Positions 13,857-30,733 of a stretch of DNA of 45,927 bases are shown here, one piece after another (the stretch's first letter is position 1; the number at the start of each line of letters is the position of its first letter). The DNA comes from a virus (taxonomy: Duplodnaviria > Caudoviricetes). The notes beneath the pieces were generated by a model. The model was given only the letters and a program-made list of their open reading frames with translations. It was not told the origin of the DNA and made no database searches. The position numbers and the translations under genes are program-made. Location of the stretch: positions 1 to 45,927 of IMG/VR virus record IMGVR_UViG_3300037313_000414, one strand, 5' to 3'.

Positions 13857-13889
13857 AACAAGCAAATACTTAAACCAGGAGGAAAGAAA

Positions 13890-14528: not shown

Positions 14529-14570
14529 GGCCGCAGGCCATCGAGTCGAACGAATAGGCGCGAGCCGAAA
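14529..14570 (+). repeat. Dispersed boundary site
   Basis: ggcc-gca-ggcc-atcgagtcgaacgaat-aggcgcg-agccgaaa immediately after TAA. Confidence 0.8.
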
Positions 14571-14581
14571 GAAGGTCTACT

Positions 14582-14773
14582 ATGTGTCCATCTTGTCAAA
14601 AGAAAGATCAAGAAATCGAAGAACTCCAACGGATCATCGCCGCTTATGAAGCGGAATCACTGATTAATGCCGGTCGGTTTCGGCAGTTTACGGCGGATCC
14701 CATTTTAGCTGCACAGACGTTTGCTGATCTACAAAAACGATTGAAGCAAAACGGAATGGAGGTAAGGACATGA
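14582..14773 (+). CDS. Hypothetical protein
   Basis: ORF in early operon, coupled to next gene. Confidence 0.6.
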   Translation: MCPSCQKKDQEIEELQRIIAAYEAESLINAGRFRQFTADPILAAQTFADLQKRLKQNGMEVRT

Positions 14774-14934
14774 TAGGGAAAGCAAGCGAAGTGAATATCG
14801 CCGAAATGGAAGTTGACTCAATCAATAAGTGGATACATGACAACCAAGAAGCGACGATCATCGATATCAAATACTCATTTCATCCAGAAGGATTCTCGTG
14901 GGCACTCATCATCTACAAGGAGGACGCACAATGA
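14770..14934 (+). CDS. Small protein, Cse60-like (54 aa)
   Basis: Manual translation ...INKWIHDNQEATIIDIKYS...ALIIYKE; RBS ggaggt. Confidence 0.55.
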   Translation: MIGKASEVNIAEMEVDSINKWIHDNQEATIIDIKYSFHPEGFSWALIIYKEDAQ

Positions 14935-15119
14935 ACGCGATATGGAACACCATCGACGAATTACGCAGCCAAATCCATCCCGATGACGAAGGAGCGCACT
15001 ATCAACTCGACGATCTGGAAATTCAACTCCGCGAGTTGGAGTCGAATGTCGAGGCGATGCAGATGGAAATCGCATTACTGAAAGGTGGACAAGCCCGTGG
15101 AAAAAGTGAAGCTGCCTAA
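14931..15119 (+). CDS. Small coiled-coil protein
   Basis: RBS aaggagg, ATG 14931. Confidence 0.65.
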   Translation: MNAIWNTIDELRSQIHPDDEGAHYQLDDLEIQLRELESNVEAMQMEIALLKGGQARGKSEAA

Positions 15120-15465
15120 AGATGTGGCGGAAACGATTGAAATCATTAGAAAGGCCAATAAACACCCGATCCGTTCAACTATGGACTTCATTTATTGCGA
15201 GGGAGAGGATTGGGATTTTCACGAACCCTCCATAACACTCAAGAAATATTGCGAAATGGATCGTTCGCAGAGGATCGAAAACATAGTTGTTGCTTTAGTC
15301 AATGGGTACGAAATTGAACCGTCGCCGGAAGAGAAGGTAAAGGCGTACTACGATGAACAATCTAACGTTTTTTCCAAAGATCAGCTCCGGCAAGACAATA
15401 CACCTTATGCAATCAGAAAAGTGCTTAATCTGCTCGGCATTGAAATCGAAGGTGTAAATACATGA
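15097..15465 (+). CDS. DUF1642-like phage protein
   Basis: KVKLPKDVAETIE...ALVNGYEIE pattern. Confidence 0.6.
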   Translation: MEKVKLPKDVAETIEIIRKANKHPIRSTMDFIYCEGEDWDFHEPSITLKKYCEMDRSQRIENIVVALVNGYEIEPSPEEKVKAYYDEQSNVFSKDQLRQDNTPYAIRKVLNLLGIEIEGVNT

Positions 15466-15689
15466 ACACATGTGTGGAATACTTGGTACTCACCGAATGC
15501 GGCAGACGCTTCTGCTGGAGCGCAATAGACGAAGAAAGCCTGCGGCGTGACTTGGAATACCGGCACTACAAACCAACGTTCGTGCAACTTTACAGCGAAT
15601 ATGAAGCGGAAATGCACCGGAAAGAGGAGCAGGAGAAGCTGGTTGCCGAGCATACCGCTGATGTGAAAGGGGAGAAACCTGCGGCATAA
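15462..15689 (+). CDS. Hypothetical protein
   Basis: ATGA-coupled ORF. Confidence 0.65.
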   Translation: MNTCVEYLVLTECGRRFCWSAIDEESLRRDLEYRHYKPTFVQLYSEYEAEMHRKEEQEKLVAEHTADVKGEKPAA

Positions 15690-15695
15690 AGGCTT

Positions 15696-15735
15696 ATTCG
15701 GCCTCTCTGCGTTAGGCGGTCGAAGAATCTCGAAT
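15696..15735 (-). repeat. Degenerate dispersed boundary site
   Basis: Plus strand attcggcc-tctctgcgtta-ggcggtcgaag. Confidence 0.55.
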
Positions 15736-15768
15736 AGGTCAATAACAAGCGAAGGATGGAGAATCGGA

Positions 15769-15987
15769 ATGAGTGATAAGTCAATATCATGGAAACCAAT
15801 GAGCATGTATGTTGCAGATGTTCTTTACACGTTCGGTGGATTGAAAGGTATGAACGCCAAAAAAATAACTAGAAGAGGAACAATATTGACCATAACACTA
15901 AATAGTGGTGATCTGCTGACTGTTAATCCACTAGATACGATTACTCAAGGATCTTACGGTGAATTGACCATTAAAAAAATGGAGTGA
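15769..15987 (+). CDS. Hypothetical protein
   Basis: ORF with RBS ggag. Confidence 0.6.
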   Translation: MSDKSISWKPMSMYVADVLYTFGGLKGMNAKKITRRGTILTITLNSGDLLTVNPLDTITQGSYGELTIKKME

Positions 15988-15992
15988 ACATA

Positions 15993-16409
15993 ATGCGTGA
16001 TATAAAGTTTCGTTACGTATTCAAGAATCATTTAGGCGAAACAGCAAGCCTGGTGTTTACCATAGAACAAGTTGAAGGAACGACAAACTTTCAAGATAAG
16101 GTAAAACAGTCAGTCGGATTTGATTTTCGCTTGATTGGAAGAGATGAATGCATTGGATTAACTGATCGTAATGGTGAAGAAATTTGGGAAAACGACATTC
16201 TCAGAAGCCCGAATGGCGCAATTGGAGTTGTGTGCTTCCACGAAAAATGGGGATCATTCTACTACAAGACAGCGTTCGGCATTAACGAATACGGCAAAAT
16301 CGTTCGTAGGATCAGTTCGGTCCGGTTCACGAATCACGCTCATAAGTACGAACGTATTGGAGACATCCACTCTACACCGGAACTACTCGAAGGGAAGGAA
16401 TCATCGTGA
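15993..16409 (+). CDS. YopX-family protein
   Basis: MRDIKFR...GLTDRNGEEIWENDIL...IGDIHSTPELL. Confidence 0.88.
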   Translation: MRDIKFRYVFKNHLGETASLVFTIEQVEGTTNFQDKVKQSVGFDFRLIGRDECIGLTDRNGEEIWENDILRSPNGAIGVVCFHEKWGSFYYKTAFGINEYGKIVRRISSVRFTNHAHKYERIGDIHSTPELLEGKESS

Positions 16410-16684
16410 GCCTGCTGATTGAAGAAGCAAAGAAACTGTATGAGGGCTGGAATTGGGAACAAGTCGCAGAGAAATTAAGTCCCTCCGATCGCGGCGCATT
16501 CCTGGCTATCGTCGGTTCTTATCAAGACTTAATCAAAGAAATCGAACGACTCCAATGTTATGAAGTCGACTATCACAAAGCGGTAGAGGACTTTCTACAA
16601 CAACGACGAGATTATGAATTTACCATTATCAATTTAAGGAACCAGACTGACAAATTGAAAGAGCAATTAAAAAAGCATCAATAA
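16406..16684 (+). CDS. Hypothetical coiled-coil protein
   Basis: Coupled ORF. Confidence 0.65.
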   Translation: MSLLIEEAKKLYEGWNWEQVAEKLSPSDRGAFLAIVGSYQDLIKEIERLQCYEVDYHKAVEDFLQQRRDYEFTIINLRNQTDKLKEQLKKHQ

Positions 16685-16688
16685 TCTC

Positions 16689-16729
16689 ATACGGCCCCCG
16701 CGTTGCTGAGCTGTTCGGTCGATTCGAAG
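16689..16729 (-). repeat. Dispersed boundary site
   Basis: Plus strand atacggcc-cccgcgttgctgagct-gttcggtcgattcgaag. Confidence 0.88.
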
Positions 16730-16745
16730 AAAGGACGAAAAGAAA

Positions 16746-17078
16746 ATGACAGAGGCTGAACTGATGGAAAAGATCAAGGCGATAGGATTACCAGAAGGTG
16801 ACGAGCGGATAAAAGGCATCGTGTGCCAGTTGATCGGACATAGCCGCATTGTAACCAGGTGTTTCGGATATGTTCATTGCGCTAGGTGCGAGAATCAGAT
16901 AGGTGACTCGCTTGGCGGTTACTGGAACGGAGAAAACGCAGTAGTAGTAGGTCATAACTGCGAAACATGCCGCACGAATTACGAAAAGATGGGATGGCAG
17001 GACAAACTATTTTGCCCGGATCCGTTCGAAGAACCGATGTTTGAAGATAGCGAAGAATCGGAAGGAGAATCCAAATGA
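16746..17078 (+). CDS. Cys-rich hypothetical protein
   Basis: Several CxxC pairs; RBS aagga. Confidence 0.7.
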   Translation: MTEAELMEKIKAIGLPEGDERIKGIVCQLIGHSRIVTRCFGYVHCARCENQIGDSLGGYWNGENAVVVGHNCETCRTNYEKMGWQDKLFCPDPFEEPMFEDSEESEGESK

Positions 17079-17317
17079 ACATCACAAACCCCAACTACAA
17101 ACCACCCCAGAATCGAAACATCGTAACGTCCTGCTGTAACGCACCAATCGTAACCGGCGCAATACACGATCCGCATCCTCTAGGATCGGATGAATACAAC
17201 GGGAACGGCATCACCTACAAAGTTAATCGCTGTGAAAACTGCGGTAACGATGAATTCGCGGCAATCGACGTATGCGAAGGATGCGGCCTGCGGGAATGCG
17301 AGGGATGCGGCGTATGA
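17075..17317 (+). CDS. Cys-rich hypothetical protein
   Basis: CC, CENC, CEGC motifs; coupled. Confidence 0.65.
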   Translation: MNITNPNYKPPQNRNIVTSCCNAPIVTGAIHDPHPLGSDEYNGNGITYKVNRCENCGNDEFAAIDVCEGCGLRECEGCGV

Positions 17318-17655
17318 CCAGGGATGAAGTGTTAGCGATGAAGCCGGGGCGGGAATTGGATGCGCTGGTAGCAGGTCGAGTGATGGGCTGGCGAGTGTTC
17401 GAAACCAAGCTTATCAAAGATGGATATGTCGCTTATCTTGCGGACTTCAACCCATCCACCAACATAGCCGCCGCATGGGAAGTCGTGGAGAAGCTACACT
17501 CAACGGGAAAATACAACCTAGCCTTGGAGTACTACCCGAATGAAAAAGATTGGGGCGCTGATTTCGACGAGTGGGGAATATCGTCCCAGGCGGTAGCCGT
17601 AACAGCTCAAGAGGCAATCGTAAAGGCCGCATTACTCGCGGTGATGGAACTATGA
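17314..17655 (+). CDS. Phage ABA-sandwich domain protein
   Basis: PGRELDALVAGRVMGW...FNPSTNIAAAWEVVEKL...AIVKAAL. Confidence 0.8.
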   Translation: MTRDEVLAMKPGRELDALVAGRVMGWRVFETKLIKDGYVAYLADFNPSTNIAAAWEVVEKLHSTGKYNLALEYYPNEKDWGADFDEWGISSQAVAVTAQEAIVKAALLAVMEL

Positions 17656-17747
17656 CCAACCTCACAATCGCCGTATGGGTCATAGCCATCGCCTTAATAT
17701 CCGCTATATCGGTACAAGCCTTATGCAAAAGGAGGTGGAGAGAGTAA
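17652..17747 (+). CDS. 31-aa single-TM peptide
   Basis: Manual translation MTNLTIAVWVIAIALISAISVQALCKRRWRE; ATGA coupling. Confidence 0.5.
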   Translation: MTNLTIAVWVIAIALISAISVQALCKRRWRE

Positions 17748-17906
17748 ATGAGCTATCAAGAGTTGTACCAACGTTACCGGCAGGCGAAGCAAGGCATGTT
17801 CGAAGCGAGAAACCCGGAAGAACGTCAACTGTGGCTAGAAATGTACCACTGGACTTTACAAGAAATAAGGAGCTTGAACGCGGCAAACGCTCAGCTCCCA
17901 ATGTAA
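17748..17906 (+). CDS. Small hypothetical protein (52 aa)
   Basis: RBS aaggaggt; manual translation MSYQELYQRYRQAK... Confidence 0.6.
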   Translation: MSYQELYQRYRQAKQGMFEARNPEERQLWLEMYHWTLQEIRSLNAANAQLPM

Positions 17907-17965
17907 TCCCCCGAGAAGGAAATTACTCATGTGAACATTGTACCACAGAAACGGAGGTAGTGAAT

Positions 17966-18448
17966 ATGCGATTGTACGACCTCACAGAGCAATACACGGA
18001 CCTGCGCGACCTATTGGAGCAGGATGCAGATAACGAAGCGTTACAGGCCATGCTGGACGGTATAGGCGGCAAGATCGAGGACAAGATCGACAACGTGCTG
18101 GCGATCCGCAACGAGAAACGGGCGAACGCGAAGATGTGCCGGGAGGAGGCTCAACGTCTCCTGGCACGTGCGGCGCAGGAAGAGAACCAGGCGAATCGGC
18201 TTGAGATTATGGTGGAATACACGATGCGGCGAACGGGAGTCGATAATGTCAAAACGAACCGGTTCACGGCATGGCTGCAGAACAATCCGCCCTCGGTCGA
18301 GATCGTGAACCAAGTCGAAATCCCCGAAAAGTATTGGAAGCCGGTTGATGCAGTACTCGATAAGAAAGCCATTAAAGAAGCGATCGACGCTGGGGAATCC
18401 GTTCCCGGCGTTACGCTGAAACAAAGCGAATCGCTTCGGGTGAGGTGA
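17966..18448 (+). CDS. Siphovirus gp157-family protein
   Basis: MRLYDLTEQY...QNNPPSVEI...IPEKY...LDKKAIKEAI..GE.VPGV.L...ESLRVR. Confidence 0.88.
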   Translation: MRLYDLTEQYTDLRDLLEQDADNEALQAMLDGIGGKIEDKIDNVLAIRNEKRANAKMCREEAQRLLARAAQEENQANRLEIMVEYTMRRTGVDNVKTNRFTAWLQNNPPSVEIVNQVEIPEKYWKPVDAVLDKKAIKEAIDAGESVPGVTLKQSESLRVR

Positions 18449-18453
18449 TAAGC

Positions 18454-19221
18454 ATGGATTCTGCTGAAATCATGAAGCGATTGCAGGAGCCATTCCCACC
18501 GGAAGATATCGAGTGGCGTGTAGGCTCTACGAACGGCGACAAGACCAAGGGCATCGCGCTGGCATACGTCACGAATCGGGCCATTATGAACCGCCTGGAC
18601 ACCATATTCGGCCCGTTCGGATGGAAAAACGAATTCCGTGAATGGAAAGGAACCAGCCAACTGTGCGGCATATCGATCAAGGTCGAAGGTGAATGGATCA
18701 CTAAATGGGACGGAGCTGACGACAGCCAAACGGAGGCGGTCAAAGGCGGGTTGTCTGATGCGATGAAGCGCGCCGGTTATCAATGGGGAATCGGGCGGTA
18801 CCTGTACAATCTCGAAAACATGTGGGTGCCGATCGAACCGGCAGGAAAGTCATATCGGCTGAGAGAGGAACCGAGACTGCCGCACTGGGCACTCCCGGAA
18901 GGTTACGAGTACAAAGGCAAACAGCCTGCATCGACTCCACCGCCGCAAGCGGCTGAATCCAATGCACCGGAAGAGGACAAGAAGCAGACGAGCGGACAAA
19001 CGGGAACAACGCCTCCTAAGTCGGAGGGGAACGGAGTCCCGATGTCAGACGCGCAGCGCAAATACATCTACAAGATCAAGAGCGAGAAGAAGATAAACGA
19101 CGATGATTTCAAGCGCATTGTATCGGAGTTGGCGGACGGGAAAACGGAAGTATCAAACCTCAACAAGATGGAAGCAAGTAAGGTTATCAATTTCCTCGCC
19201 AGTTACCAAGTCGCATCGTGA
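18454..19221 (+). CDS. Rad52/Rad22-like single-strand annealing protein (Sak type)
   Basis: LQEPFPPEDIEWRV, AYVTNRAIMNRLD, KGGLSDAMKRA..WGIGRYLY. Confidence 0.9.
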   Translation: MDSAEIMKRLQEPFPPEDIEWRVGSTNGDKTKGIALAYVTNRAIMNRLDTIFGPFGWKNEFREWKGTSQLCGISIKVEGEWITKWDGADDSQTEAVKGGLSDAMKRAGYQWGIGRYLYNLENMWVPIEPAGKSYRLREEPRLPHWALPEGYEYKGKQPASTPPPQAAESNAPEEDKKQTSGQTGTTPPKSEGNGVPMSDAQRKYIYKIKSEKKINDDDFKRIVSELADGKTEVSNLNKMEASKVINFLASYQVAS

Positions 19222-19229
19222 GGTGACCT

Positions 19230-19667
19230 ATGGGCATCGGACAAAAGAAACAAAAGCCCGAATATACCGCCTGTACCTGTAAACGGTGTGGCAAGGTAAC
19301 GGAACGTCGCACAATTGCTCTAACAAGCCTCTCTAAGCACTTCTGCGGCCCTTTATGTGTTCGGGAGTATCAACACAGCCGGAAGGTGTCCAAAGCCCGT
19401 ACAGCGCGTTTTAAGCCGTCTGCGAGGCAACGTGGTGCGATCAGTCCGAAGGTGCGGAAACAGTTACGGGAACGGTCAAATGGACAGTGTGAGCGGTGTG
19501 GTGGTGTCGCCGCACATGCGGCCCATATCAAGAGACGATGGAAGCATGAGGTACCGCCTACGGTGGAGGATTTACTTCACCTTTGCATTACGTGTCATGC
19601 CTGGGCGGATCAGACGCGGGACGGTAGGGATTGGCTCAAAAGCTTTGAAAAGCCACAGATCGTTTAG
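19230..19667 (+). CDS. HNH endonuclease
   Basis: CERCG...AHI......LLHLCITCH. Confidence 0.8.
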   Translation: MGIGQKKQKPEYTACTCKRCGKVTERRTIALTSLSKHFCGPLCVREYQHSRKVSKARTARFKPSARQRGAISPKVRKQLRERSNGQCERCGGVAAHAAHIKRRWKHEVPPTVEDLLHLCITCHAWADQTRDGRDWLKSFEKPQIV

Positions 19668-19696
19668 CGGCTCACGCTGATTCGGTCGAATCGAAG
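19665..19696 (-). repeat. Dispersed boundary site
   Basis: Plus strand tagcggct-cacgctg-attcggtcgaatcgaag. Confidence 0.82.
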
Positions 19697-19724
19697 AAAA
19701 ATCAAATGCTAAGGAGCAAATACA

Positions 19725-20015
19725 ATGCCATTTTACAAGATTTATTTCGGATTAGGTGGAGGTTACGGCGGCGCTCGTTACGACAGTACAGAAGAGTTTG
19801 ACAACGAAGAAGAGGCCGAAGAATACGCATATGAACGAGCTTGCGAAACATTCGAGTCATACAACGGTTTATACGGCCTGCAAACGGTCGAGGAGATCAT
19901 GAAAGAGGAAGGCGTAGACGAAGAATACGCGGAAGAAATGTGGAACGAACAGCGTGATAACTGGGTTGATTATCGGGTTAAACTGGCAACCGGCCCCGAT
20001 GATACAGACGATTAA
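19725..20015 (+). CDS. Acidic hypothetical protein bracketed by inverted boundary sites
   Basis: RBS aaggag; very Glu/Asp-rich. Confidence 0.75.
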   Translation: MPFYKIYFGLGGGYGGARYDSTEEFDNEEEAEEYAYERACETFESYNGLYGLQTVEEIMKEEGVDEEYAEEMWNEQRDNWVDYRVKLATGPDDTDD

Positions 20016-20016
20016 C

Positions 20017-20070
20017 AGGCCGAACGGCCTCCGTATCGACCGAACCACACAGCGATAGCGGAGGCCGTAC
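20017..20070 (+). repeat. Dispersed boundary site
   Basis: aggcc-gaac-ggcct-ccgtatcgaccgaac-cacacagcgatagcgga-ggccgtac. Confidence 0.85.
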
Positions 20071-20096
20071 CCCTGATTTAGAAAGGAGCATATCCC

Positions 20097-20729
20097 ATGA
20101 ATGAACTTAAACGAGAAATAGAAGAAGCATTAGCGAAAGCAGCGGTTAGACCTGACGGAATCATAATCAAAGAAGAATCTAAGTATTTTCCATTGCATTG
20201 GTACTTCGAAAAAGGGAACGAAGAATTGCGTGACAATTGCCTTTATTGGCTCCGTCAACTCCTAGACGAGAACCAACGACAAGAGGTAGAATGCGAACTT
20301 TTAACGGCGCAAAAGATGCATTTAATAGACGAGAACCAAGATTTAATGCGGCGTTTAGTTCGTTTAAGTAAAGTTTTATCTCCTTCGGCTTCCGAACTCC
20401 AAGCACTTCGAGACGAGAACCAAGCACTACACAAAGAACGTGATTTTTACAAAGAAGATCGGGACCGTTGCGAGCGTTTGGAACGCAAAGCATACGAACA
20501 ACTTGAAGCACAAGCGAAGGAAATTGAACTACTGAAACAACGTCTGCTTCTGCCGGAAGGTGTTTATCTTGGATACGAAAATTTAAACGCTGAACTTCAA
20601 GCACTACGAGAAAGAGAAGTACGATACCGGGAAGCATTGGAATGGTATGAACACCCCAAATGGGACGACAAAGGCGAACGCGCCCGTAACGCACTCATAG
20701 GAAACCAAGAAGAAGGGATGCGCGGATAA
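20097..20729 (+). CDS. Coiled-coil protein with internal DENQ repeats
   Basis: RBS aaaggag; heptad pattern; C-terminal YREALEWY..ARNAL. Confidence 0.7.
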   Translation: MNELKREIEEALAKAAVRPDGIIIKEESKYFPLHWYFEKGNEELRDNCLYWLRQLLDENQRQEVECELLTAQKMHLIDENQDLMRRLVRLSKVLSPSASELQALRDENQALHKERDFYKEDRDRCERLERKAYEQLEAQAKEIELLKQRLLLPEGVYLGYENLNAELQALREREVRYREALEWYEHPKWDDKGERARNALIGNQEEGMRG

Positions 20730-20731
20730 AA

Positions 20732-20980
20732 ATGCCGGAACTTAATAGGTGGGCAGAGATAAAGAAAACTCGGAAAGATCATAACTGTTTCGGTTGTCGC
20801 TCCGTAATACCAGCAGGATCGAAAGCGCACTATTACGCTGGTGTGTTTGAAGGCGAATTTTCAGCTAATCATTACTGTGAGCCGTGCTTCGATTTCCTTG
20901 ATAAGCATCCTGACTACTTTGAGGAAGGTATCTTTTGCGGCGAAGTAGCTTACGCGAGGGAACATGAAGAAGGGATATAA
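20732..20980 (+). CDS. Zn-binding hypothetical protein
   Basis: KTRKDHNCFGC...YCEPC. Confidence 0.7.
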   Translation: MPELNRWAEIKKTRKDHNCFGCRSVIPAGSKAHYYAGVFEGEFSANHYCEPCFDFLDKHPDYFEEGIFCGEVAYAREHEEGI

Positions 20981-20987
20981 CCCCCTT

Positions 20988-21028
20988 ATCCTGCTTGGGT
21001 ATTGCGGTCGACTCGATGGCGCAAGCGC
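20988..21028 (-). repeat. Dispersed boundary site
   Basis: Plus strand tgggtattgcggtcgactcgatggcgcaagcgc; near-inverse of the 24501 copy. Confidence 0.75.
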
Positions 21029-21056
21029 AAAAAACAAAAGAATAGGCGGTGCTCAC

Positions 21057-21209
21057 ATGGATGATCTTTGTCATATGTGCGACGGAAGCGGTAAAGACAG
21101 TGACGCTGTAGCTGCAGCCTCGTATCCAGACCACTGCACCAATTGCGGAGGCACTGGAATAGAACCTGAAGTTGCTGACGAAGAAGACGAAGAAGACGAA
21201 ACATTATGA
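21057..21209 (+). CDS. Small DnaJ-type CxxCxGxG Zn-finger protein (50 aa)
   Basis: CHMCDGSG...CTNCGGTG, acidic tail. Confidence 0.65.
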   Translation: MDDLCHMCDGSGKDSDAVAAASYPDHCTNCGGTGIEPEVADEEDEEDETL

Positions 21210-21226
21210 ATAGGTGGTGTTCATGA

Positions 21227-21427
21227 GTGGATTGTTGCCATCATTGCGGTTCCGATGAAGGATATTACACAAAGATGCAAGTTAGCGGACGAATTACAAC
21301 TAGATTTAAATTCGACGGTAGCGAGGCGGAAAACGGCGATATGTATGAGTACCTGAAATATAAAGGCGGCAAGTATGCTTACTGCTTAAACTGCAACAAG
21401 CAAATATTCCGCATGGAAACAAAATGA
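21227..21427 (+). CDS. Small Zn-ribbon protein
   Basis: CHHCGS...YCLNCNK. Confidence 0.7.
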   Translation: MDCCHHCGSDEGYYTKMQVSGRITTRFKFDGSEAENGDMYEYLKYKGGKYAYCLNCNKQIFRMETK

Positions 21428-21440
21428 ATAGGCGGTGTTC

Positions 21441-21626
21441 ATGGTGAAGTGTTCTGACTGCCAGCACGCGAGGAAACGGAGCATTCCGAGGAATGGTAAC
21501 AGTGCATCAGCTGGAATCCGTTTCTCCGAACACGTTTACGAGTGCCGGCATCCCAACGTAAGGCATACGGTGCATAGTTTGGGTTTTACGGGGAAGACGA
21601 GCCCAAGCAATTGCCCGCTAAAGTAA
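21441..21626 (+). CDS. Small Cys-rich protein
   Basis: KCSDCQH...C.HP...CPLK; RBS aggcggtg. Confidence 0.65.
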   Translation: MVKCSDCQHARKRSIPRNGNSASAGIRFSEHVYECRHPNVRHTVHSLGFTGKTSPSNCPLK

Positions 21627-21664
21627 TTCGATGAATATCGAGGAACTTGAGGAGGGGAAATTCT

Positions 21665-21826
21665 ATGTTTAAAGCTAAGCATTCATCTGGTGTGGTCTAC
21701 AAGATATACGCCGTGCAGCAACTTGAAGACGGTTTAACGCAGTTTTTGATTTATCACGAAGGTGCACGCAATTGGCTTTGGTGGTCTGCGCTGGACTTCG
21801 ATCCATACGAACAGGATGAATATTGA
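21665..21826 (+). CDS. Small hypothetical protein (53 aa)
   Basis: Manual translation MFKAKHSSGVVYKIYAV...; RBS gaggagg. Confidence 0.6.
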   Translation: MFKAKHSSGVVYKIYAVQQLEDGLTQFLIYHEGARNWLWWSALDFDPYEQDEY

Positions 21827-21995
21827 GGAACATAGGAGGGCATCCAGCATGAATGAAACCGGACGAATGATGAGATACCGTCCTACCTTTACGGGAACGA
21901 TGGATTTTCATGTTGATTCGCTATCATGCTAGACGATGTAGTCATGGTGTTCAGAATTGGCATTTTTATCGGATTAAAAGACTTCAAAACCGCTT

Positions 21996-22040: not shown

Positions 22041-22064
22041 AAAACCAGAGGAGGAGAAGCAAAA

Positions 22065-23880: not shown

Positions 23881-24100
23881 CAGCGCAATGTGGGAATCGA
23901 TCCTCTCCCGCGCCTCGCCTGGACTGTACCTGAAACTATGGACGGTGCGAAGTGCTGGCGCGGTGATCGAGGACGGGAAGATCAAACCGGGACTGTTGAC
24001 TCAGGAAGAATGGGATGAAGTAGTCAGACCGCATTTAGCGCCGTATGCGAATGAAATCAAGTTTCTGTTAAAGCGATTGGACGAATTAAAAGGCGCATAA
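23831..24100 (+). CDS. Hypothetical protein
   Basis: RBS aaggagg; follows initiator. Confidence 0.65.
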   Translation: MEHKMETRLDPRPLYPDSAMWESILSRASPGLYLKLWTVRSAGAVIEDGKIKPGLLTQEEWDEVVRPHLAPYANEIKFLLKRLDELKGA

Positions 24101-24115
24101 GTGGAGGGATAACCG

Positions 24116-24508
24116 TTGTCGGATAATATCATCCAAATTGATGTGATACGTGTAGAACGGAGAAAGCCGCGTAAATGTGTATGCCAAGAACGTCACTACA
24201 CCATCGACACTGTAAACCGCGAAGTGACATGCGAATGTGGAATGGTTGTCGATCCGTTTGAAGCTATGCTCGATGTAGCCAGGCACTATGAACGGATTAA
24301 TGAACAACATCAAGCACTTGACGCACAACGCCGGGAGTGGATTAAACAAAAACCACACTCCGTTTTGTTCAAACGGCTGGAACAGCAGTACATGCGCGGT
24401 GAAATGCTCCCGTATTGTCCGAAATGCGAAAACTTGTTTGATTTCAAAGACGTGAGATGCTTTGGGAACGCCGAGTTTTATCGCAAATTGGAGAAATCAA
24501 GGCGCTAG
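24116..24508 (+). CDS. Zn-binding hypothetical protein
   Basis: CVC, CECG, CPKC; RBS ggaggg, TTG start. Confidence 0.7.
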   Translation: MSDNIIQIDVIRVERRKPRKCVCQERHYTIDTVNREVTCECGMVVDPFEAMLDVARHYERINEQHQALDAQRREWIKQKPHSVLFKRLEQQYMRGEMLPYCPKCENLFDFKDVRCFGNAEFYRKLEKSRR

Positions 24509-24542
24509 CGCCATCGGATCGACCGAAATACCCAGGCCGTAA
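24501..24542 (+). repeat. Dispersed boundary site
   Basis: ggcgc-ta-gcgcc-atcggatcgaccgaaa-taccca-ggccgtaa; upstream stop codon lies in the hairpin. Confidence 0.88.
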
Positions 24543-24618
24543 GAGGAATTAATAAAATCTTGGTTAAAGCGATTAAATGATTTAAAAGGCGCTTAAAAGC
24601 GATGGAGGAGGGGATAGG

Positions 24619-25721
24619 GTGAGAGTCGGAATACTGGACATCGACACGAAGAAAGAAACAAACGGATTCGGGCGAAAGTCCAAGTATCCGAATATCGCAT
24701 GTGGAAAAATCTACGGCTATCACAAACTAAACGGCGATGAAGTGATTTATCCGTACAACGGCGAGAAGGTAGACCGCCTTTATATATCGACTATTTTCAC
24801 GAACACCCGTCCAATGATAAAGCGGATGCTACCATATTGGGAACAACGGGCGGATGAAATCCTGATCGGAGGAACTGGATGGGATGATTACACGAAAGCG
24901 CCGTACACCATAACCGAATTACCTCCCGAGATAGCCGATATCCCGCATTATCCGTGGACATACGAAATGTATGACATCGATTATGGAATTGGATTCAGTA
25001 CAAGAGGTTGCCACGTTGGATGCGCGTTCTGCGTGGTGCCGAAAAAGGAAGGGCGCGAGGAATACCGGGAAACGCGGGTGCGGGACTTGATTAATCCGCG
25101 AGGCAAACACTTGATCCTGATGAACAACAACAGCCTAGCACATAAGGACTTTTTCGAGGATGTCGCGGAAATCAAAGAACATGGACTCAGCATCCATTGG
25201 GACCAGGCAAACGACATCACACTCGTCACACCGAAGGGATTGCCGAAGCGCTGGCCTCAGTCAACTACCGGGGATTCGACGGGAAGAAAAAGCAGTTATT
25301 CTTTGCTTTCGACCTGTTAACCCGGAAGAAGATTGATCCCGAACACGGCGGAACGGTCATATACGACATGACGAAGGAGGTGCCGGAAAAGGTAAAACTA
25401 TTGGCTGAATACGGTATACCAGCTCACCACCTGGTGTTTTACATGCTGATTGGGTTTAACACAACCGAGGAAGAAGATTTGCAACGTGTGGAGATTCTCC
25501 GATCGCTCGGCTGTGAGATTTATCCGATGTTGTTCCGTGACCTTAACGGCAGGCCTGGAGTGGACGGAAACGGTAAGCCGCAGTCATTCCATGTACGGGC
25601 TTTGCGGGACTGGATCAACAGTGGTGTTTATCGCAAGACCCCATTCAAAGATTTTGAAAGACGGACATCGCACAAGAAGAAACGAGAGTTCGAAGATATG
25701 CAGATGGCTTTCAATTTTTAG
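24619..25721 (+). pseudogene. Radical SAM protein split by a -1 frameshift near 25230-25240
   Basis: RGCHVGCAFC (CxxxCxxC) in the first ORF; protein-like continuation (FAFD, FYMLIGFNTT..EDLQRV) in ORF 25197..25721. Confidence 0.75.
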
Positions 25722-25763
25722 CGCGAAGCGCCGTCGAATCGACCGAATCCACGCGAGCCGATA
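25721..25763 (+). repeat. Dispersed boundary site
   Basis: gcgc-gaa-gcgc-cgtcgaatcgaccgaat-ccacgcg-agccgata. Confidence 0.88.
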
Positions 25764-25794
25764 AAAAATCCCACAAAGGAGGAATAAACCCATC

Positions 25795-26199
25795 ATGACC
25801 ATAACCGAAACAGAAGCCTTTATCCTCGACTGCATCAAACAAAATATCAGCGTAGCGAACATGGTCCGAAAGCGGGGATGCGATGACAGTTGCATCACCA
25901 AAGCCATAACCAAATTGATCCGCAAGGGCATCATTGTCCGCGTGTCTACCGGAAAATACGAAATCTTGAACGACAACGTGACGGTTAGGACGAAACGGGA
26001 ACCGGTCCCGAAAACAGCGCAGGGACGGAAAGACAAACCGGATAACCTGGTTAAGCTCATGGTGGTCCCCTTAACCGAGGAACAAAAGCTATATGCAGAC
26101 GGACATAAGAAGCAAATGACCCGCAGCCAACTGGCCAAACGGTTAGGCGTACCGAAAATGCAGCTAAATTTCTACTTGGGAGGCAACGATGCCTCATGA
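25795..26199 (+). CDS. Putative winged-helix DNA-binding protein
   Basis: ITKAITKLIRKGIIVRVSTGKY; second HTH-like RSQLAKRLGV. Confidence 0.6.
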   Translation: MTITETEAFILDCIKQNISVANMVRKRGCDDSCITKAITKLIRKGIIVRVSTGKYEILNDNVTVRTKREPVPKTAQGRKDKPDNLVKLMVVPLTEEQKLYADGHKKQMTRSQLAKRLGVPKMQLNFYLGGNDAS

Positions 26200-26300
26200 A
26201 CAAGAGCAAACATGGTTTTCGTTGCTGTACCTGTTGCCACAAGCGCTATAACCGGTGCTACTTCCCATATCACAAATGCAAGGGGGTGGCAAAGACATGA
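26196..26300 (+). CDS. Tiny Cys/His-rich peptide (34 aa)
   Basis: Manual translation; ATGA-coupled on both sides. Confidence 0.45.
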   Translation: MNKSKHGFRCCTCCHKRYNRCYFPYHKCKGVAKT

Positions 26301-26428
26301 ACAACCGAGCAGTCGTAACCTGTAACGAGGGATTTATCAGCGCACAGATGAGTTATATCGAAGCGGTCAAATTCGCGCATCTGCTGGAAGAGCGCGGAAA
26401 CTATCAGGTAAAGGTGAGGTTGGTATGA
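26297..26428 (+). CDS. Small hypothetical protein (43 aa)
   Basis: Manual translation; coupled to rusA start. Confidence 0.5.
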   Translation: MNNRAVVTCNEGFISAQMSYIEAVKFAHLLEERGNYQVKVRLV

Positions 26429-26841
26429 GGACCATAATCGCAGAATTCCCGATCTACGTAAAACCGATGGGCGCCGTACGCATGACTCAGCGGAGCAAAT
26501 GGAAGGATGAACATGCACAAAAATATCTCAGCTACAAAGACGCGATCGGGTTTGCGGCGAAACAGCACATCAAAGAACCATTGAACAAGCCGATCAGCGT
26601 GAAACTGGCCTTTTACTATCCGATGCCGAAAAAATGGAGCAAGTCCAAGAAAGACGATGCAAACGATCAAGGTATCATGCCGGTGGTGAAGCCGGATATC
26701 GACAACTGTATCAAAGGCGTATTCGATGCGCTGAACAAAATCGCCTGGACTGATGATAACCTCGTGGTCGATGTATGGAGCATGAAACGGTACTCGCACA
26801 AACCAATGATTGCTGTGACAATCGAGGAGGTGATCGCGTGA
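26425..26841 (+). CDS. rusA: RusA-family Holliday junction resolvase
   Basis: KPDIDNCIKGVFDALNKIAWTDDNLVV. Confidence 0.92.
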   Translation: MRTIIAEFPIYVKPMGAVRMTQRSKWKDEHAQKYLSYKDAIGFAAKQHIKEPLNKPISVKLAFYYPMPKKWSKSKKDDANDQGIMPVVKPDIDNCIKGVFDALNKIAWTDDNLVVDVWSMKRYSHKPMIAVTIEEVIA

Positions 26842-27041
26842 AACCACTGGCACACGTCCACTGGCTGGACAACGGCGATGAAAAGTCGGTGCCGCTCTAC
26901 GATCAACAGTCGATTGCATCCGTCACAGCCGGTTTGAGACGCGAGAAAGTCGCCTATTGGGTGTGTATGAACAGCATGGACATCAGAATACCACCTGTAA
27001 CGCAATATACGCCACGTAGAGACACGCTGGCGAGTGGGTAG
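26838..27041 (+). CDS. Hypothetical protein
   Basis: RBS ggaggtg, GTG start overlapping rusA stop. Confidence 0.55.
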   Translation: MKPLAHVHWLDNGDEKSVPLYDQQSIASVTAGLRREKVAYWVCMNSMDIRIPPVTQYTPRRDTLASG

Positions 27042-27100
27042 GGTAAAGACAGCGGTAAGGGATTGAAACGCGTTAGAAACGAAAATAGGAGGTTATTTGC

Positions 27101-27307
27101 ATGGTATTCGAAATCGGAAAATATTACGGTCATCCCAGCGGTGAACAAGTGGCAATCGTAGGAGAGGTTAGCACGACGATGTACGGGGGTTGTCTCGTCG
27201 CAGAATCTAGTTCCAGTCCTGATTTAAAACCATTTGGCAAGGATGAATCGCACGCAGAGAACTGGTTTGAAATAACGCGGGACGAGTGGATGAAAAATTT
27301 CTCTTAG
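27101..27307 (+). CDS. Hypothetical protein
   Basis: RBS aggagg. Confidence 0.7.
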   Translation: MVFEIGKYYGHPSGEQVAIVGEVSTTMYGGCLVAESSSSPDLKPFGKDESHAENWFEITRDEWMKNFS

Positions 27308-27358
27308 GCCGAAGGCCATCGAGCCGACCGAACGACCCAGCGAAAGCGGGGGCCGAAT
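27307..27358 (+). repeat. Dispersed boundary site
   Basis: ggcc-gaa-ggcc-atcgagccgaccgaac-gacccagcgaaagcggg-ggccgaat. Confidence 0.88.
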
Positions 27359-27381
27359 CCAATCTTGAGGAGGTTAAAAAA

Positions 27382-27576
27382 ATGTACACCTATGACATGT
27401 ATAAAAACGCAGACAACGAAGCCAGTAAAGACTTCATCGCAAGAAAAATGGCAGACGAACTGCAATTTTACAAGAACAGGTGTCAAACACTCGAACAAAA
27501 CAAACCCGATCCCCTCAAGGTGCTGGAATTCCGCAAGCCGATGCACCGCATTAAGCCGCCGAATGATGCATCATAA
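27382..27576 (+). CDS. Hypothetical protein
   Basis: RBS gaggagg, ATG 27382. Confidence 0.6.
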   Translation: MYTYDMYKNADNEASKDFIARKMADELQFYKNRCQTLEQNKPDPLKVLEFRKPMHRIKPPNDAS

Positions 27577-27617
27577 AGCACAAAATGTTGGGATAAACCC
27601 GCGCAAGACCTACTAAT

Positions 27618-27628
27618 TGTGGTATAAT
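27618..27628 (+). promoter_or_regulatory. Extended -10 promoter element
   Basis: TGTGGTATAAT upstream of the 27690 gene. Confidence 0.55.
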
Positions 27629-27689
27629 AGGTATTATCTATGAAAGTCAACGGATTAATAAGTAAACATTATAGGAGGCATGGAAAAAG

Positions 27690-28754
27690 ATGAATCGAGA
27701 AGACCTGGAAGCACGTTTAGACGAGGTACAGCAAAACATTTCAATTGAAAAACAGCGCGGCCCGGAGAAGAACGCGGAACAAATCGCCATTTGGGAGCAG
27801 GAAGAAGCGGATATTCTCGCACAGATGGATCAACTGGAGAAGCAGGCCGTATCCGAACAGATCAACCAGGCGCACACGGACCGTGTTACAGCGGCATCAC
27901 AGGAAATTGCATCAATTTTGGATACGATCGAGTTTGAAGGGATGAGCATGCGCCAACTGTGCGCCGGCGAACCGCAGTATCAGGCGCTCCGCATTCTTGC
28001 TCAACAGGCGTACCAAGACCAAGCTCAGAAGTACAGTGACCAACTCCGCGCAGCCGAAGAACGGGAAGCGCAACTCAAACGGCAGAACGATATCCTGCAA
28101 CAACGAATTAACCAATCCGAGACGGAAAAACTGCAGTTGCAGACGGAACTCAACGACCGTGAATCGAAACTGCAGGCGGCAACGAGCGAAATCGACCGGC
28201 TGAACAGTCAGGTGGATGACCTTCGCAAGGAAATCGCAGTCGGCGCACGAAGCGCGGTCAAGGTGCAGGACGTGGATCAACTGACCCAACTTCGCAACCT
28301 GGCGGCAGAGATCAAGGCATCGCTTATCCCGATCTACGACAAGAAAGAAATGGACTTCAAAGGCACACGATACAGCGCGAAGCTGGCGAAAAGCGGGGAA
28401 GAAATCGAATTTTCGTATCTGGAATCGCCAAAGTATTACGAAGTCACACCGGAACAGGTGCTGGACTTTCGTCGCCAATACGAAGCCGAGCAGGCCGAAC
28501 TTGCTGCGCAGAACGATACGAACGATCAGCCACTGGCTGAACCCGAGCAGGGCCATGTAACGGGTGAACAGTTTCAAACCACGGATGAAGTACCGCCCGT
28601 ATTACCAGACGTACAAGCACCCACCGTTGATCGAGAGGTGGCATCAGAGGCGGGAACAGATGCTGTCAGCCGAGAGGAAGTTGACGCACGATTCAAACGG
28701 ATCGAGGAACACTTGGGACTGAAATCCTGGCGTTATGACGGCGAGGTGGCGTAA
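27690..28754 (+). CDS. Long coiled-coil protein
   Basis: Glu/Gln-rich heptads; RBS aggagg. Confidence 0.75.
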   Translation: MNREDLEARLDEVQQNISIEKQRGPEKNAEQIAIWEQEEADILAQMDQLEKQAVSEQINQAHTDRVTAASQEIASILDTIEFEGMSMRQLCAGEPQYQALRILAQQAYQDQAQKYSDQLRAAEEREAQLKRQNDILQQRINQSETEKLQLQTELNDRESKLQAATSEIDRLNSQVDDLRKEIAVGARSAVKVQDVDQLTQLRNLAAEIKASLIPIYDKKEMDFKGTRYSAKLAKSGEEIEFSYLESPKYYEVTPEQVLDFRRQYEAEQAELAAQNDTNDQPLAEPEQGHVTGEQFQTTDEVPPVLPDVQAPTVDREVASEAGTDAVSREEVDARFKRIEEHLGLKSWRYDGEVA

Positions 28755-29012
28755 ATGGAGTTTAAATACGAAATTGATACGAGAGTAAAAACGTCCAGTG
28801 AGCTCGTCATTTATCATACGGATGATGAAAGCGGCGAAGAGTACGAAACCGTTATTCCAGTTGGGGCGAATGGTGTTATCGAATCACATGGCTGGAGCTC
28901 GACAGAGGGATTCAGACCGAGGTATGATGTGCTGTTTAAATTACCGGACAACGAAATATCAGTCTCATTTTTCGAACCTGATTTTGAGGAAAATTGCATC
29001 GTCGAACAGTAG
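28755..29012 (+). CDS. Acidic hypothetical protein
   Basis: RBS gaggtgg; directly follows previous stop. Confidence 0.7.
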   Translation: MEFKYEIDTRVKTSSELVIYHTDDESGEEYETVIPVGANGVIESHGWSSTEGFRPRYDVLFKLPDNEISVSFFEPDFEENCIVEQ

Positions 29013-29020
29013 CAGTTGAG

Positions 29021-29072
29021 GGCCGAAGGGCATCGAATCGACCGCATTACCCAGCGACAGCGGGGGCCGTAT
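29021..29072 (+). repeat. Dispersed boundary site
   Basis: ggccgaaggg-catcgaatcgaccgcat-tacccagcgacagcggg-ggccgtat. Confidence 0.85.
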
Positions 29073-29121
29073 AGGTCTATAGCAATAGGTCTATCGGTCC
29101 CTATAGGAGGGGAATAGAACA

Positions 29122-29355
29122 ATGTCAACCATTTGCACAAGTTGCAGAGGAACAGGATATAGCGACTACCTTGAAGACAAGGACACGATATGCCTCACAT
29201 GCGGAGGAATTGGCACATTAGCAGTCGCACAAGTGCCAAGGAATCCGTTTGACTGGATGCAGTCGTGGGTGGATGCTTACGAACGAAACGTGGGAGACGG
29301 AAAGGCGAAAGCGTTTATCGAATGGGTTAACAATCAGCCAATGGCCGCAGGATAA
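29122..29355 (+). CDS. Small CxxCxGxG Zn-finger protein
   Basis: CTSCRGTG...CLTCGGIG. Confidence 0.7.
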   Translation: MSTICTSCRGTGYSDYLEDKDTICLTCGGIGTLAVAQVPRNPFDWMQSWVDAYERNVGDGKAKAFIEWVNNQPMAAG

Positions 29356-29451
29356 GCGGCAGGAGGGGAATAGAGAAGTGAAAATATTCTGGAAGGGATA
29401 TCATCCGCCTTATTGGTATCGATACTTCAAGGGGGAGAGGAGGAACAGAAC

Positions 29452-29631
29452 ATGATGGATAAAGAAGTAAAAGATAAATTCGATTATGTGGCGGAGGCGA
29501 TAAAAATAACCACGATTGAACTCGCCACACTTAAAACGGTACTTACGGCAAAAGGAGTGTTCACAAACGAAGAATACGAAAAGGTGGCAAAGGAAGTCGA
29601 AGCACTAACCACTAAGTCGTTCGGATTTTGA
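29452..29631 (+). CDS. Small hypothetical protein
   Basis: RBS aggagg, ATG 29452. Confidence 0.6.
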   Translation: MMDKEVKDKFDYVAEAIKITTIELATLKTVLTAKGVFTNEEYEKVAKEVEALTTKSFGF

Positions 29632-29690
29632 AATAGTTTCGGCAATCGTCCGGCATGACACCGAAACTAACACATAGGAGATGGTCCGGC

Positions 29691-30113
29691 ATGACTGATT
29701 GGAGAACAACGTACCACGACTTATGCAGGGAAATCGAAATATTGGAACTCCGCGCATCGGACTTGGAATTCCAAATGCGTATCGCCAAATCCATCTGCTT
29801 CCGGGGATTCGTAACCGACCAATATAGCCGCATACCGTTGGACAAGGCGCTGAACAAATATGACGACGTAAAAGACGAACTACTCGCGGTAGTAGCGATG
29901 CTGGAACACAAACAGCAGACCAAACGTGAGATTGAGAAGAGGATGAGCGAGTTTGACGGACTGGAATATCAAGTTGCGTACCGGCGCGATGTACTCCGGC
30001 AACCACTCGATGAGATCGCGGATGACCTGGGGTACAGCTACAACTGGATCATGAAAGTGAGTGCGAGGACGACATTCCGCGCAAAAGGCAGAAAGAAGGC
30101 AGAAACGGCGTGA
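29691..30113 (+). CDS. Late transcriptional activator (RinA/ArpU-like, sigma region-4-type HTH)
   Basis: LEYQVAYRRDV..QPLDEIADDLGYSYNWI; position before the packaging genes. Confidence 0.7.
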   Translation: MTDWRTTYHDLCREIEILELRASDLEFQMRIAKSICFRGFVTDQYSRIPLDKALNKYDDVKDELLAVVAMLEHKQQTKREIEKRMSEFDGLEYQVAYRRDVLRQPLDEIADDLGYSYNWIMKVSARTTFRAKGRKKAETA

Positions 30114-30250
30114 TCGGACGTGATAAAATGATATTAGGTTAGTTCATGCCGGACGAACCGAGCGAAAGGCGATTGCATAGCGCAGTCGTCTTTTTCTTTT
30201 GGAGACAAGTGCATAAGCGCATCTCGAATAAAACGAAGAGGATGAGGACG

Positions 30251-30640
30251 ATGAGTATTAGGACGTTCGAAGGTGAATCGTGGATTTGCGGCTGGTTCAA
30301 TCGGCACACAGGTAGTTTGGTTGACGTACAACAATACAGCACAGAAGAAGGGGCAAAACAGTGTGCCGAGACGTTTCGCGGCATTTACCAAACGTTTGTC
30401 GGTCGTATCGAGGACGTAACGGATTGGGAAAGTGCATCGAAATGTGATGAGGCCGAAATGGAACCAATAGATAAATATAACGAATCTACGGTAAAATCGA
30501 TCGTTGATGATATGAGATACGAATATGCGCAATATTTGCAAATCCTTATCGAAGCGCAAAAAGCCGGTCATGACTGCCACGCGGAAATGAACGAAACAAT
30601 CAAAGCGCTTCACGGCCTTATCTTCGCGAAAACGGCGTAA
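30251..30640 (+). CDS. Hypothetical protein
   Basis: ORF with gagg RBS; followed by a terminator. Confidence 0.65.
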   Translation: MSIRTFEGESWICGWFNRHTGSLVDVQQYSTEEGAKQCAETFRGIYQTFVGRIEDVTDWESASKCDEAEMEPIDKYNESTVKSIVDDMRYEYAQYLQILIEAQKAGHDCHAEMNETIKALHGLIFAKTA

Positions 30641-30646
30641 ACATAT

Positions 30647-30675
30647 GGGCGGTGCGATACCGCCCTTTATCTTTT
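30647..30675 (+). terminator. Rho-independent terminator
   Basis: gggcggt-gcgat-accgccc-tttatctttt. Confidence 0.7.
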
Positions 30676-30733
30676 GCAACGCAGTTGCCATCGAGATCGA
30701 CCGAATCCACGCAGGCGAAGCCGGTGGCCGTAT
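30676..30733 (+). repeat. Dispersed boundary site (last copy before the packaging module)
   Basis: gcaac-gca-gttgc-catcgagatcgaccgaat-ccacgcaggcgaagccggt-ggccgtat. Confidence 0.88.

Follow-up and report, generated by a model that had tools for sequence, protein, structure and literature searches.

Mini-hairpin repeats at early-gene junctions of temperate phages: a candidate single-stranded DNA recombination signal at replication forks

The 45,927-nt IMG/VR virus record IMGVR_UViG_3300037313_000414, which was analyzed over its full length and is referred to here as the window, harbors 17 intact copies and one decayed copy of a repeat of 30-60 bases. The repeat is located at gene junctions between small early genes and occurs in both orientations, and the 17 copies align well. 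In this repeat and its relatives in other phages (hereafter the element), conserved blocks surround an inner hairpin with a covarying stem and GNA or GNNA loops on one strand. Unpaired copies flip their orientation at the replication initiator gene, inward-facing pairs surround single genes, and the cargo between conserved arms has been replaced. The best reading of these observations is that the element acts as a recombination signal in single-stranded DNA (ssDNA) exposed at replication forks, to which we assign a probability of about 0.45. Folding of the element on the exposed strand is likely, as is a role as a marker of slots in which accessory genes replace one another. It is real and apparently undescribed, and its mechanism is one that we infer.

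The window covers a whole virus record that carries direct terminal repeats, and represents a complete temperate phage. Encoded on it are a serine integrase (minus strand, 9201-10706), helix-turn-helix (HTH) repressors and an antirepressor; Gam-like and Erf-like proteins (17966-19221); the DnaD-like initiator (22930-23880); RusA; and terminase, portal and capsid proteins. Of the sequencing runs that contain it, the best is from a soil metagenome, its possible source, and none of those listed is an RNA run.

Consensus and distribution of the element

On the motif strand the consensus begins with an optional outer hairpin, C-WY-CG-N(3; sometimes 2 or 4)-CGACCGAA and 3-5 free bases, and continues with CYYA, an optional inner hairpin, GGN and RGCCGWA. 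The spacer comprises 7-9 nt in short copies and 16-29 nt in long copies. The C at position -1 is nearly invariant even where the outer hairpin is lacking (82/84), and T runs occur 5' of the outer hairpin, not 3'. Copies are positioned after a stop codon and before the next ribosome-binding site. With respect to the surrounding genes 150 of 220 copies are sense, 57 antisense and 13 mixed.

A two-block profile scan with a threshold of at least 16 bits yielded 228 matches in 76 records (1.83 Mb) that had been chosen by pattern matches, compared to none in the reversed sequences, which is far above chance. The enlarged set, filtered for score, G+C content and an upstream C..CG, contains 353 distinct copies from 171 of 750 scanned sequences, with 1 to 17 copies per genome. 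Counts of covariation, closing pairs and fixed bases refer to 344 of these 353, after a tighter G+C cut and removal of two archaeal chance matches. Blocks of virion genes make up 31% of the DNA, yet contain only one of 151 copies.

Named genomes with family-like copies belong to Paenibacillus, Cohnella, Gorillibacterium and Gordoniibacillus (Paenibacillaceae). Among bacterial genomes, the pattern was present in 28 of 136 from one Paenibacillaceae-type family, with at most five matches per genome that were mostly clustered; the same 136 genomes gave 58 pattern matches versus 17 for a control pattern. In sampled Bacilli it occurred in 12 of 301 genomes, and most of these matches lacked the spacer features. 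The element belongs to prophages and is not a host repeat.

In a covariance-model search of Rfam 15 no copy was matched, whether at the gathering score or at E<=10. When one copy each was compared by BLASTN with 50,697 phage and 72,556 plasmid records, only short chance matches appeared; this comparison is insensitive for 60-90 nt. No published description was found in a literature search that covered few subscription journals, and the element is absent from the main-text passages of PMC5737381. A Brevibacillus phage motif is described as promoter-like in the relevant part of PMC4909266.

Folding of the inner and outer hairpins

According to the original prediction, which was made from the letters of the window alone, hairpins beside the core differ in their stems, keep similar loops and act as folded ssDNA. 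To avoid stems picked by eye, the covariation frame was fixed between CYYA and the last three spacer bases, and 272 of 283 long copies could be parsed. The first two inner pairs are Watson-Crick in 261/272 and 257/272 copies, compared to maxima of 176 and 159 after shuffling, and mutual information is 0.84 and 0.99 versus at most 0.07. The first pair is G-C in 185 and A-T in 76 copies, the second C-G in 177, T-A in 44 and G-C in 35. Thus the predicted variation with retained pairing holds for the inner stem.

The inner loops are constrained as well. Three-base loops are GNA in 126 of 137 copies and four-base loops are GNNA in 40 of 44, comprising 34 GNYA and six GNRA, and the complementary TNC or TNNC loop occurs in 0 of 289 long copies. 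In antisense copies 28 of 35 inner loops are still GNA or GNYA on the motif strand. The inner closing pair is C-G in 232 of 268. Chance pattern matches had GNA in 22 of 163 cases, and terminator-like hairpins of the same genomes, whose longer stems make the comparison not like for like, had GNA in one of 227 and UNCG in 19.

These loops and closing pairs agree with the rules measured for DNA mini-hairpins, as reviewed in the sections of PMC13037366 used here. There, GNA is the only one of 64 triloops that gives a DNA mini-hairpin, GATA, GACA, GTTA and GAAB loops are tolerated, and stems of GC-GC and CC-GG are functional, in contrast to CG-CG and GG-CC. The DNA hairpin melts at 76.5 C and its RNA equivalent r(GCGAAAGC) at 39 C, and mini-hairpins bind SSB, the binding protein for single-stranded DNA, poorly (PMC13037366). 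AC-GT and GT-AC stems, which are common in the element, are missing from the table of that review.

In sense copies (n=101, from the 220) the outer loops are G-led, with 50 GNA, 14 GNYA and 28 G-N-A-B-type loops; the GAAG, GAAC and GAAT loops among them correspond to the GAAB class (PMC13037366). In antisense copies only 11 of 29 outer loops are G-led, so that the predicted loop constraint broke down there, which counts against the original prediction for the outer hairpin of antisense copies. For the inner hairpin on the motif strand the claim is well supported by the covariation, the DNA-type loops and closing pairs, the motif-strand loops of antisense copies, the rarity of such loops in terminators and the strand flip described below. 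The inner hairpin is likely to work as ssDNA, as far as can be judged from sequence.

It had also been suggested that the opposite strand forms a stem with a G-T pair and a bulged A. This pairing is possible on paper, lacks compensatory changes and lies on the strand without GNA loops. In the candidate stem of 5 bp the A/C position is fixed in 336/344 copies, C-G occurs in 209 copies versus C/A in 132, and the stem never covaries. Pairing in its AT.A/AT extension is no commoner than expected, and the pair probability predicted with DNA parameters is 0.12 on the opposite strand versus 0.04 on the motif strand. Nearest-neighbor folding was uninformative as a strand test, because DNA parameters give GCGAAGC and its complement equal energy. 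A likeness of the commonest hairpin-plus-GG to Bacilli Chi sites was set aside because the stem covaries.

Orientation about the initiator gene

The initiator gene was recognized in 28 of 42 records. Upstream of it 21 unpaired copies are antisense and 11 sense, downstream two are antisense and 54 sense (p=2e-10), a p-value that, like the others for polarity, overstates independence because many downstream copies are orthologous. The antisense/sense ratios are 17/11 upstream and 1/52 downstream within 11 kb of the initiator, and 9/5 and 1/9 within 2.6 kb. A per-genome sign test restricted to this first set of copies gave 9:0 with three ties. The polarity was replicated in the 40 of 90 non-redundant new loci that carry an initiator (4/3 versus 4/35, p=0.012). 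Short pairs lie on both sides, 12 upstream and nine downstream.

On either side of the initiator, the motif strand of unpaired copies thus tends to point away from it in the 5' to 3' direction. This strand would be the template of the lagging strand provided that replication starts within the initiator gene and is bidirectional, an arrangement taken from lambdoid phages.

Inward-facing pairs and exchange of the enclosed genes

Neighboring copies at most 800 bp apart are mainly those that face inward (minus then plus; 31/46, compared to 8/71 tandem and 10/33 outward neighbors), and the same holds for the larger set (39/60, 12/85 and 10/38). Such pairs usually enclose a single open reading frame (ORF), mostly without relatives or Pfam family. 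The window contains four of them, which are listed with its other copies and the two relevant gene regions below.

7223-7263, minus: element, short, outer GCC-GAAG-GGC; sense to leftward genes
7926-7967, minus: element, short, outer AGGCC-GAA-GGCCT (7955-7967); arm of inward-facing pair (partner 8324/8325)
8011-8301, minus: HTH gene inside the 7926/8325 pair
8324-8355, plus: element, short, no outer hairpin; antisense to local genes
8589-8632, minus: element, long, inner GCC-GCA-GGC (8600-8608)
13825-13856, minus: element, short, antisense; pair arm with 14529
13890-14528, plus: ORF of 212 amino acids inside pair, no Pfam family
14529-14570, plus: element, short, outer GGCC-GCA-GGCC (14529-14539) immediately past stop codon
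15696-15737 (about), minus: decayed element, core disrupted, 3' block intact; found by eye, under scan threshold
16689-16729, minus: element, long, inner GC-AAC-GC; unpaired, antisense
17966-19221, plus: Gam-like protein and Erf-like single-strand annealing protein; candidate machinery
19665-19696, minus: element, short, antisense; pair arm with 20018
19725-20015, plus: ORF of 96 amino acids inside pair
20018-20070, plus: element, long, outer GGCC-GAAC-GGCC, inner GC-GATA-GC (20052-20059)
20988-21028, minus: element, short, degenerate 3' block, outer GCG-CTTG-CGC; unpaired, antisense
21996-22040, minus: element, short, outer GCGGC-TAT-GCCGC; pair arm with 22355
22065-22388, plus: ORF of 107 amino acids inside pair; stop codon within downstream element
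22355-22395, plus: element, short, outer GCC-GCA-GGC (22355-22363)
22930-23880, plus: replication initiator, DnaB_2/DnaD-like domain; flip point of unpaired elements, putative origin position
24501-24542, plus: element, short, outer GGCG-CTAG-CGCC
25721-25763, plus: element, short, outer GCGC-GAA-GCGC (25721-25731)
27307-27358, plus: element, long, outer GGCC-GAA-GGCC (27307-27317), inner GC-GAAA-GC (27340-27347)
29022-29072, plus: element, long, outer GCC-GAAG-GGC, inner GC-GACA-GC (29054-29061)
30676-30733, plus: element, long, 4-nt gap between the two CG, outer GCAAC-GCA-GTTGC (30676-30688), inner GGC-GAA-GCC (30714-30722); last copy before terminase genes

All hairpins named in the original prediction were recovered, most of them in the region 14529-30733 to which it had assigned them; AGGCC-GAA-GGCCT and the inner GCC-GCA-GGC lie outside this region on the minus strand. 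The similarity of their loops holds for the copies it named and leaves out exceptions. An outer hairpin is present in 12 of the 17 scored copies, with six GNA, three GAAC or GAAG and three non-G loops (CTAG, TAT, CTTG); five copies have no outer hairpin, and one inner loop is AAC. As a separate observation, the stretch 3' of the 24501 element (24536-24596) repeats, at 74% identity, the 3' end of a gene two positions upstream (24040-24100), and both stretches begin with the 3' block of the element.

Replacement of the cargo was seen in two of 44 compared pairs, which have homologous outer flanks and unrelated cargo (G014/L727 and G009/L497). Between G014 and L727 identity is 93-95% across both arms and further out, the match extending at 93% to ~35 bases inside the left arm and resuming at 94.5% from nine bases before the right core. 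In G009 and L497 the cargo is swapped likewise, with lower flank identity. In other relatives differing DNA of hundreds of bases ends exactly at the invariant C before the core. Homology breaks lie within 45 bases of an element in 27 of 30 independent groups, and 5' breaks cluster at the invariant C and at the edge of the outer hairpin.

Similarity between partner arms does not exceed that of random pairs (0.19 versus 0.23, p=0.18), and homologues of the cargo kept both arms in only one of nine matches. This indicates that the pairs are slots and not traveling transposons, and a model of terminal inverted repeats or composite transposons was rejected. General target-site duplication was rejected, as duplications of at least 8 nt were only mildly enriched (16/339 versus 2.2% in controls). 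One clear filled/empty family has an 11-17-nt duplication, which may also be left over from a former gene end. Of 53 empty sites, 10 had a target motif similar to the 3' block; these were mostly decayed elements, and the motif was discarded. Lone outer hairpins, the expected reciprocal products of dedicated recombination, are rare, and the assembled contigs of four DNA runs contained no interpretable excision joint.

Three further observations concern such junctions. A second conserved sequence (~40-60 bp, 98-100% identical) occurs at unrelated gene boundaries without the element (3' flank of G036:18181, loci L709, L768, L781 and L288, G046 and G050). YopX and similar genes end differently beside the element than in element-free relatives (G044:41210, G010:20100, G001:30285), the stop codon often being supplied by the element or its outer hairpin. 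A Tad2-like anti-defense gene (L379:546-833, plus strand; record G012) is located immediately upstream of an element.

A proposed recombination signal at the replication fork

A fork-exposed recombination signal would operate as follows. Replication would start inside the initiator gene and proceed both ways; the mini-hairpins would exclude SSB and expose the core on the lagging-strand template, where a host or phage protein would read the folded strand. The folded signal would then be a landing site for fork-coupled strand exchange by single-strand annealing of the Erf/RecT type, as in recombination by lambda Red beta. An inward-facing pair places two arms around one gene, and one arm would always be on the lagging template on either side of the origin, with the cargo on its 5' side. 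Such a geometry would account for pairs on both sides of the origin and for polarized single copies. In lambda Red recombination, ssDNA with two ~50-nt arms is described as annealing to the lagging template (PMC2918612), and Erf/RecT proteins are reported to act on short diverged homology (PMC3945230). A gene for an annealing protein was recognized in 29 of 34 element-bearing records of at least 34 kb, but such genes are common in temperate phages.

Several points weigh against this reading. The position and direction of the origin are putative, and theta replication of SPP1 is described as unidirectional (PMC5737612). Moreover, of the 32 unpaired copies upstream, 11 are oriented against the model, and many downstream copies are orthologous junctions. 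The inner hairpin is missing in about one in six copies, and the outer loops of antisense copies, with their low share of G-led loops, are a weak point for ssDNA. Copy number is alike in phages with Erf and RecT (p=0.40). Invariant bases are interleaved with free ones, which suggests sequence-specific recognition and thus a protein able to read the sequence; annealing proteins lack this ability, and no reader protein was found. Flank switching at elements did not differ from that at early-gene junctions (0 both-sided and eight one-sided versus 27/188, p=0.6), and a claim of recombination hotspots was dropped because ordinary early-gene junctions switch equally often. Breaks at the 5' and 3' edges occurred at a ratio of only 17:9 in the 30 independent groups (p=0.17), and the break pattern is also expected from a crossover inside any shared repeat.

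The search for an acting protein yielded no dedicated enzyme. The only family common to all 34 near-complete records is an HTH, and a protein of 354 amino acids that is frequent in these phages had no informative Atlas match. The comparison with integron integrases and HUH transposases in the original prediction found no enzyme behind it, as Y1_Tnp (PF01797) was present in one of 50 phage records, where it is broken, with host genomes outside this search. A scan for the H-U-H motif in proteins of 90-260 amino acids found no match, and no primase or HUH family turned up when 85, 100 and 30 selected proteins were scanned with Pfam.

A more far-reaching proposal is an undescribed fork-coupled gene-slot system, in which a protein-read ssDNA signal on the lagging template directs new genes to its 5' side. 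This is tentative, and we consider it doubtful. If true, inward-facing pairs would be replaceable single-gene slots, which would provide integron-like evolvability without integrase or transposase. The neat placement of new genes at gene boundaries in temperate phages is a long-standing question, for which the usual answers are random recombination with subsequent selection, or 'linker' sequences held in common. The folding rules and orientation of this linker family point to the replication fork, so that the question becomes directly testable. As the bracketed genes are mostly unique ORFans, the element also offers a convenient marker in the search for newly acquired phage genes. Furthermore, it adds ~350 natural covarying DNA mini-hairpins to the handful of biological cases named in the consulted part of the review (PMC13037366).

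Alternative explanations

The elements could instead be priming signals of the G4-origin/ssiA kind, where a primase or primosome loads at SSB-free hairpins of the lagging template and junctions change as a by-product of primer ends that switch template. The polarity is consistent with this, as are the mini-hairpins of the G4, St-1 and alpha3 origins and RSF1010 ssiA (PMC13037366), and for ssiA a binding stretch on the 5' side is described together with a hairpin and, immediately 3' of the latter, a start site (PMC8567376). However, the CTA/TTA triplets of Bacilli primase (PMC2978363) stand ahead of the inner hairpin in only half of the copies (134 of 268), although the Paenibacillus primase may differ. 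The Pfam scans gave no primase family, and avoidance of virion-gene blocks and a copy number between 1 and 17 are unexpected for priming signals, which makes this explanation improbable.

A dedicated ssDNA recombinase or HUH nuclease, attC-like or REP-like, might cut the invariant C|W at the 5' edge, in which case the copies may be partly selfish. The conservation of the C without an outer hairpin, the differing DNA that ends exactly at this base in several relatives and the clustering of 5' breaks fit such an enzyme, and IS200/IS605 and attC favor the lagging template while TnpA(REP) cuts C|T (PMC3333891, PMC6006769, PMC5371416). It is nevertheless unlikely in view of the near absence of Y1_Tnp and H-U-H proteins, the HTH as sole common family, the unlike partner arms, the rarity of cargo with both arms and of lone outer hairpins, and the mild enrichment of flanking duplications.

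We consider it quite unlikely that the element acts in cis as RNA, for instance as an antiterminator, a processing site or an antisense site of early and antisense transcripts. Its location between stop codon and ribosome-binding site would suit this role, YY pairs with GG as C-G or T-G, like G-U in RNA, and the flip could also result from transcription that starts near the initiator gene and runs leftward. Yet GNYA loops outnumber GNRA 42 to 12, triloops on 2-bp stems dominate, the RNA hairpin melts at the low temperature given above, 57 of 220 copies are antisense to their own genes and Rfam gave no match. No promoter consensus overlaps a copy, and the sole terminator-like match that touches one is a weak minus-strand hairpin over the outer-hairpin edge at 14529.

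A double-stranded operator or polar fork-barrier site with incidental hairpins, which the one-helical-turn distance between the commonest spacer classes (7-8 and 17-18 nt) and the sharp conserved blocks might suggest, is highly improbable given spacers that are continuous from 16 to 29 nt as the stem grows, covarying stems and, to our knowledge, the inability of 2-bp stems to extrude from duplex DNA.

Comparison with known junction repeats

The closest placement is that of the PeSL cassettes of the T4-type phages RB49 and phi1, described by Arbiol et al. 2010 (PMC2839356) as a multi-copy intergenic stem-loop repeat beside ORFans of a variable region and proposed to be a gene-shuffling linker without a known dedicated recombinase. 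The element shares the location at gene junctions of variable regions. In contrast to PeSL, it has no sigma-70 promoter consensus (no promoter-like site over the copies in 12000-31200) and occurs in both orientations, as inverted pairs, with DNA-type mini-hairpin loops, polarity about the initiator and in temperate phages.

Like attC sites (PMC5371416), the element is strand-specific folded DNA at gene junctions with a terminal hairpin of variable length and a putative relation to the lagging template. It differs in that it is not a direct-repeat array (98/183 neighboring pairs are inverted), has no GTT core in its consensus and a high conservation of primary sequence. Covariation gives no support for a long R/L stem, the candidate stem being invariant. 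As to an integron integrase, the window has a serine integrase only, and the tyrosine integrases of its relatives are ordinary phage integrases.

REP/BIME with TnpA(REP) and the ends of IS200/IS605 (PMC3333891, PMC6006769) are likewise described as short intergenic hairpin repeats, single or in inverted pairs, with a lagging-strand bias and possibly a C|T-like junction. Unlike REP, the element has no GTAG foot, no homogenized arms and no Y1 enzyme in 49 of 50 records, and it is clustered in short phage-like stretches instead of being dispersed over the host chromosome.

The ssi signals of G4, St-1 and alpha3 and RSF1010 ssiA/ssiB share GNA/GNNA mini-hairpins in a 40-60-nt signal with conserved flanks, and ssiA and ssiB form an inverted pair on opposite strands, like the element pairs (PMC13037366, PMC8567376). 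A mini-hairpin on the template strand is common to both. The element differs by up to 17 copies between genes versus one or two at an origin, by a primase triplet that is half conserved and by the absence of a cognate primase among the selected proteins scanned.

In the pdif modules of Acinetobacter plasmids accessory genes are bracketed by inverted sites, which are fixed-length duplex XerC/D sites. The element brackets accessory genes in the same way, but its spacer varies and folds. The hallmark of intrinsic terminators, a GC-rich stem with a U tract behind it on the transcribed strand, is lacking. By these comparisons the element would fall outside PeSL, attC and REP, each by a defining feature, and would correspond in part to ssi signals, with a strand logic like that of attC, REP and ssi sites. 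What distinguishes it from other junction repeats is the combination of inverted slots, mini-hairpin rules and polarity about replication.

Other features of the phage

Between the integrase and the repressor region the window contains a c-di-GMP-I riboswitch (11157-11242, plus strand; 66.9 bits). A 13-bp inverted repeat read by eye (29646-29658 and 30144-30156) flanks a transcriptional-regulator gene (29691-30113), and a partial third copy overlaps its start codon (29685-29695); this set may be the operator set for a late switch. A radical-SAM gene is broken over two frames (24619-25320 and 25197-25721, plus strand), and both parts match phrog_9298. A small ORF (8608-8943, minus strand) is similar to part of the recombinase domain of the serine integrase (phrog_95; weak Pfam match). 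A protein of 1434 amino acids (812-5116, plus strand) has no PHROGs or Pfam match and has relatives in eight related records. An O-antigen-ligase-like (Wzy_C) gene (43707-45098, minus strand) is opposite in strand to the tail genes and is likely a lysogenic-conversion gene.

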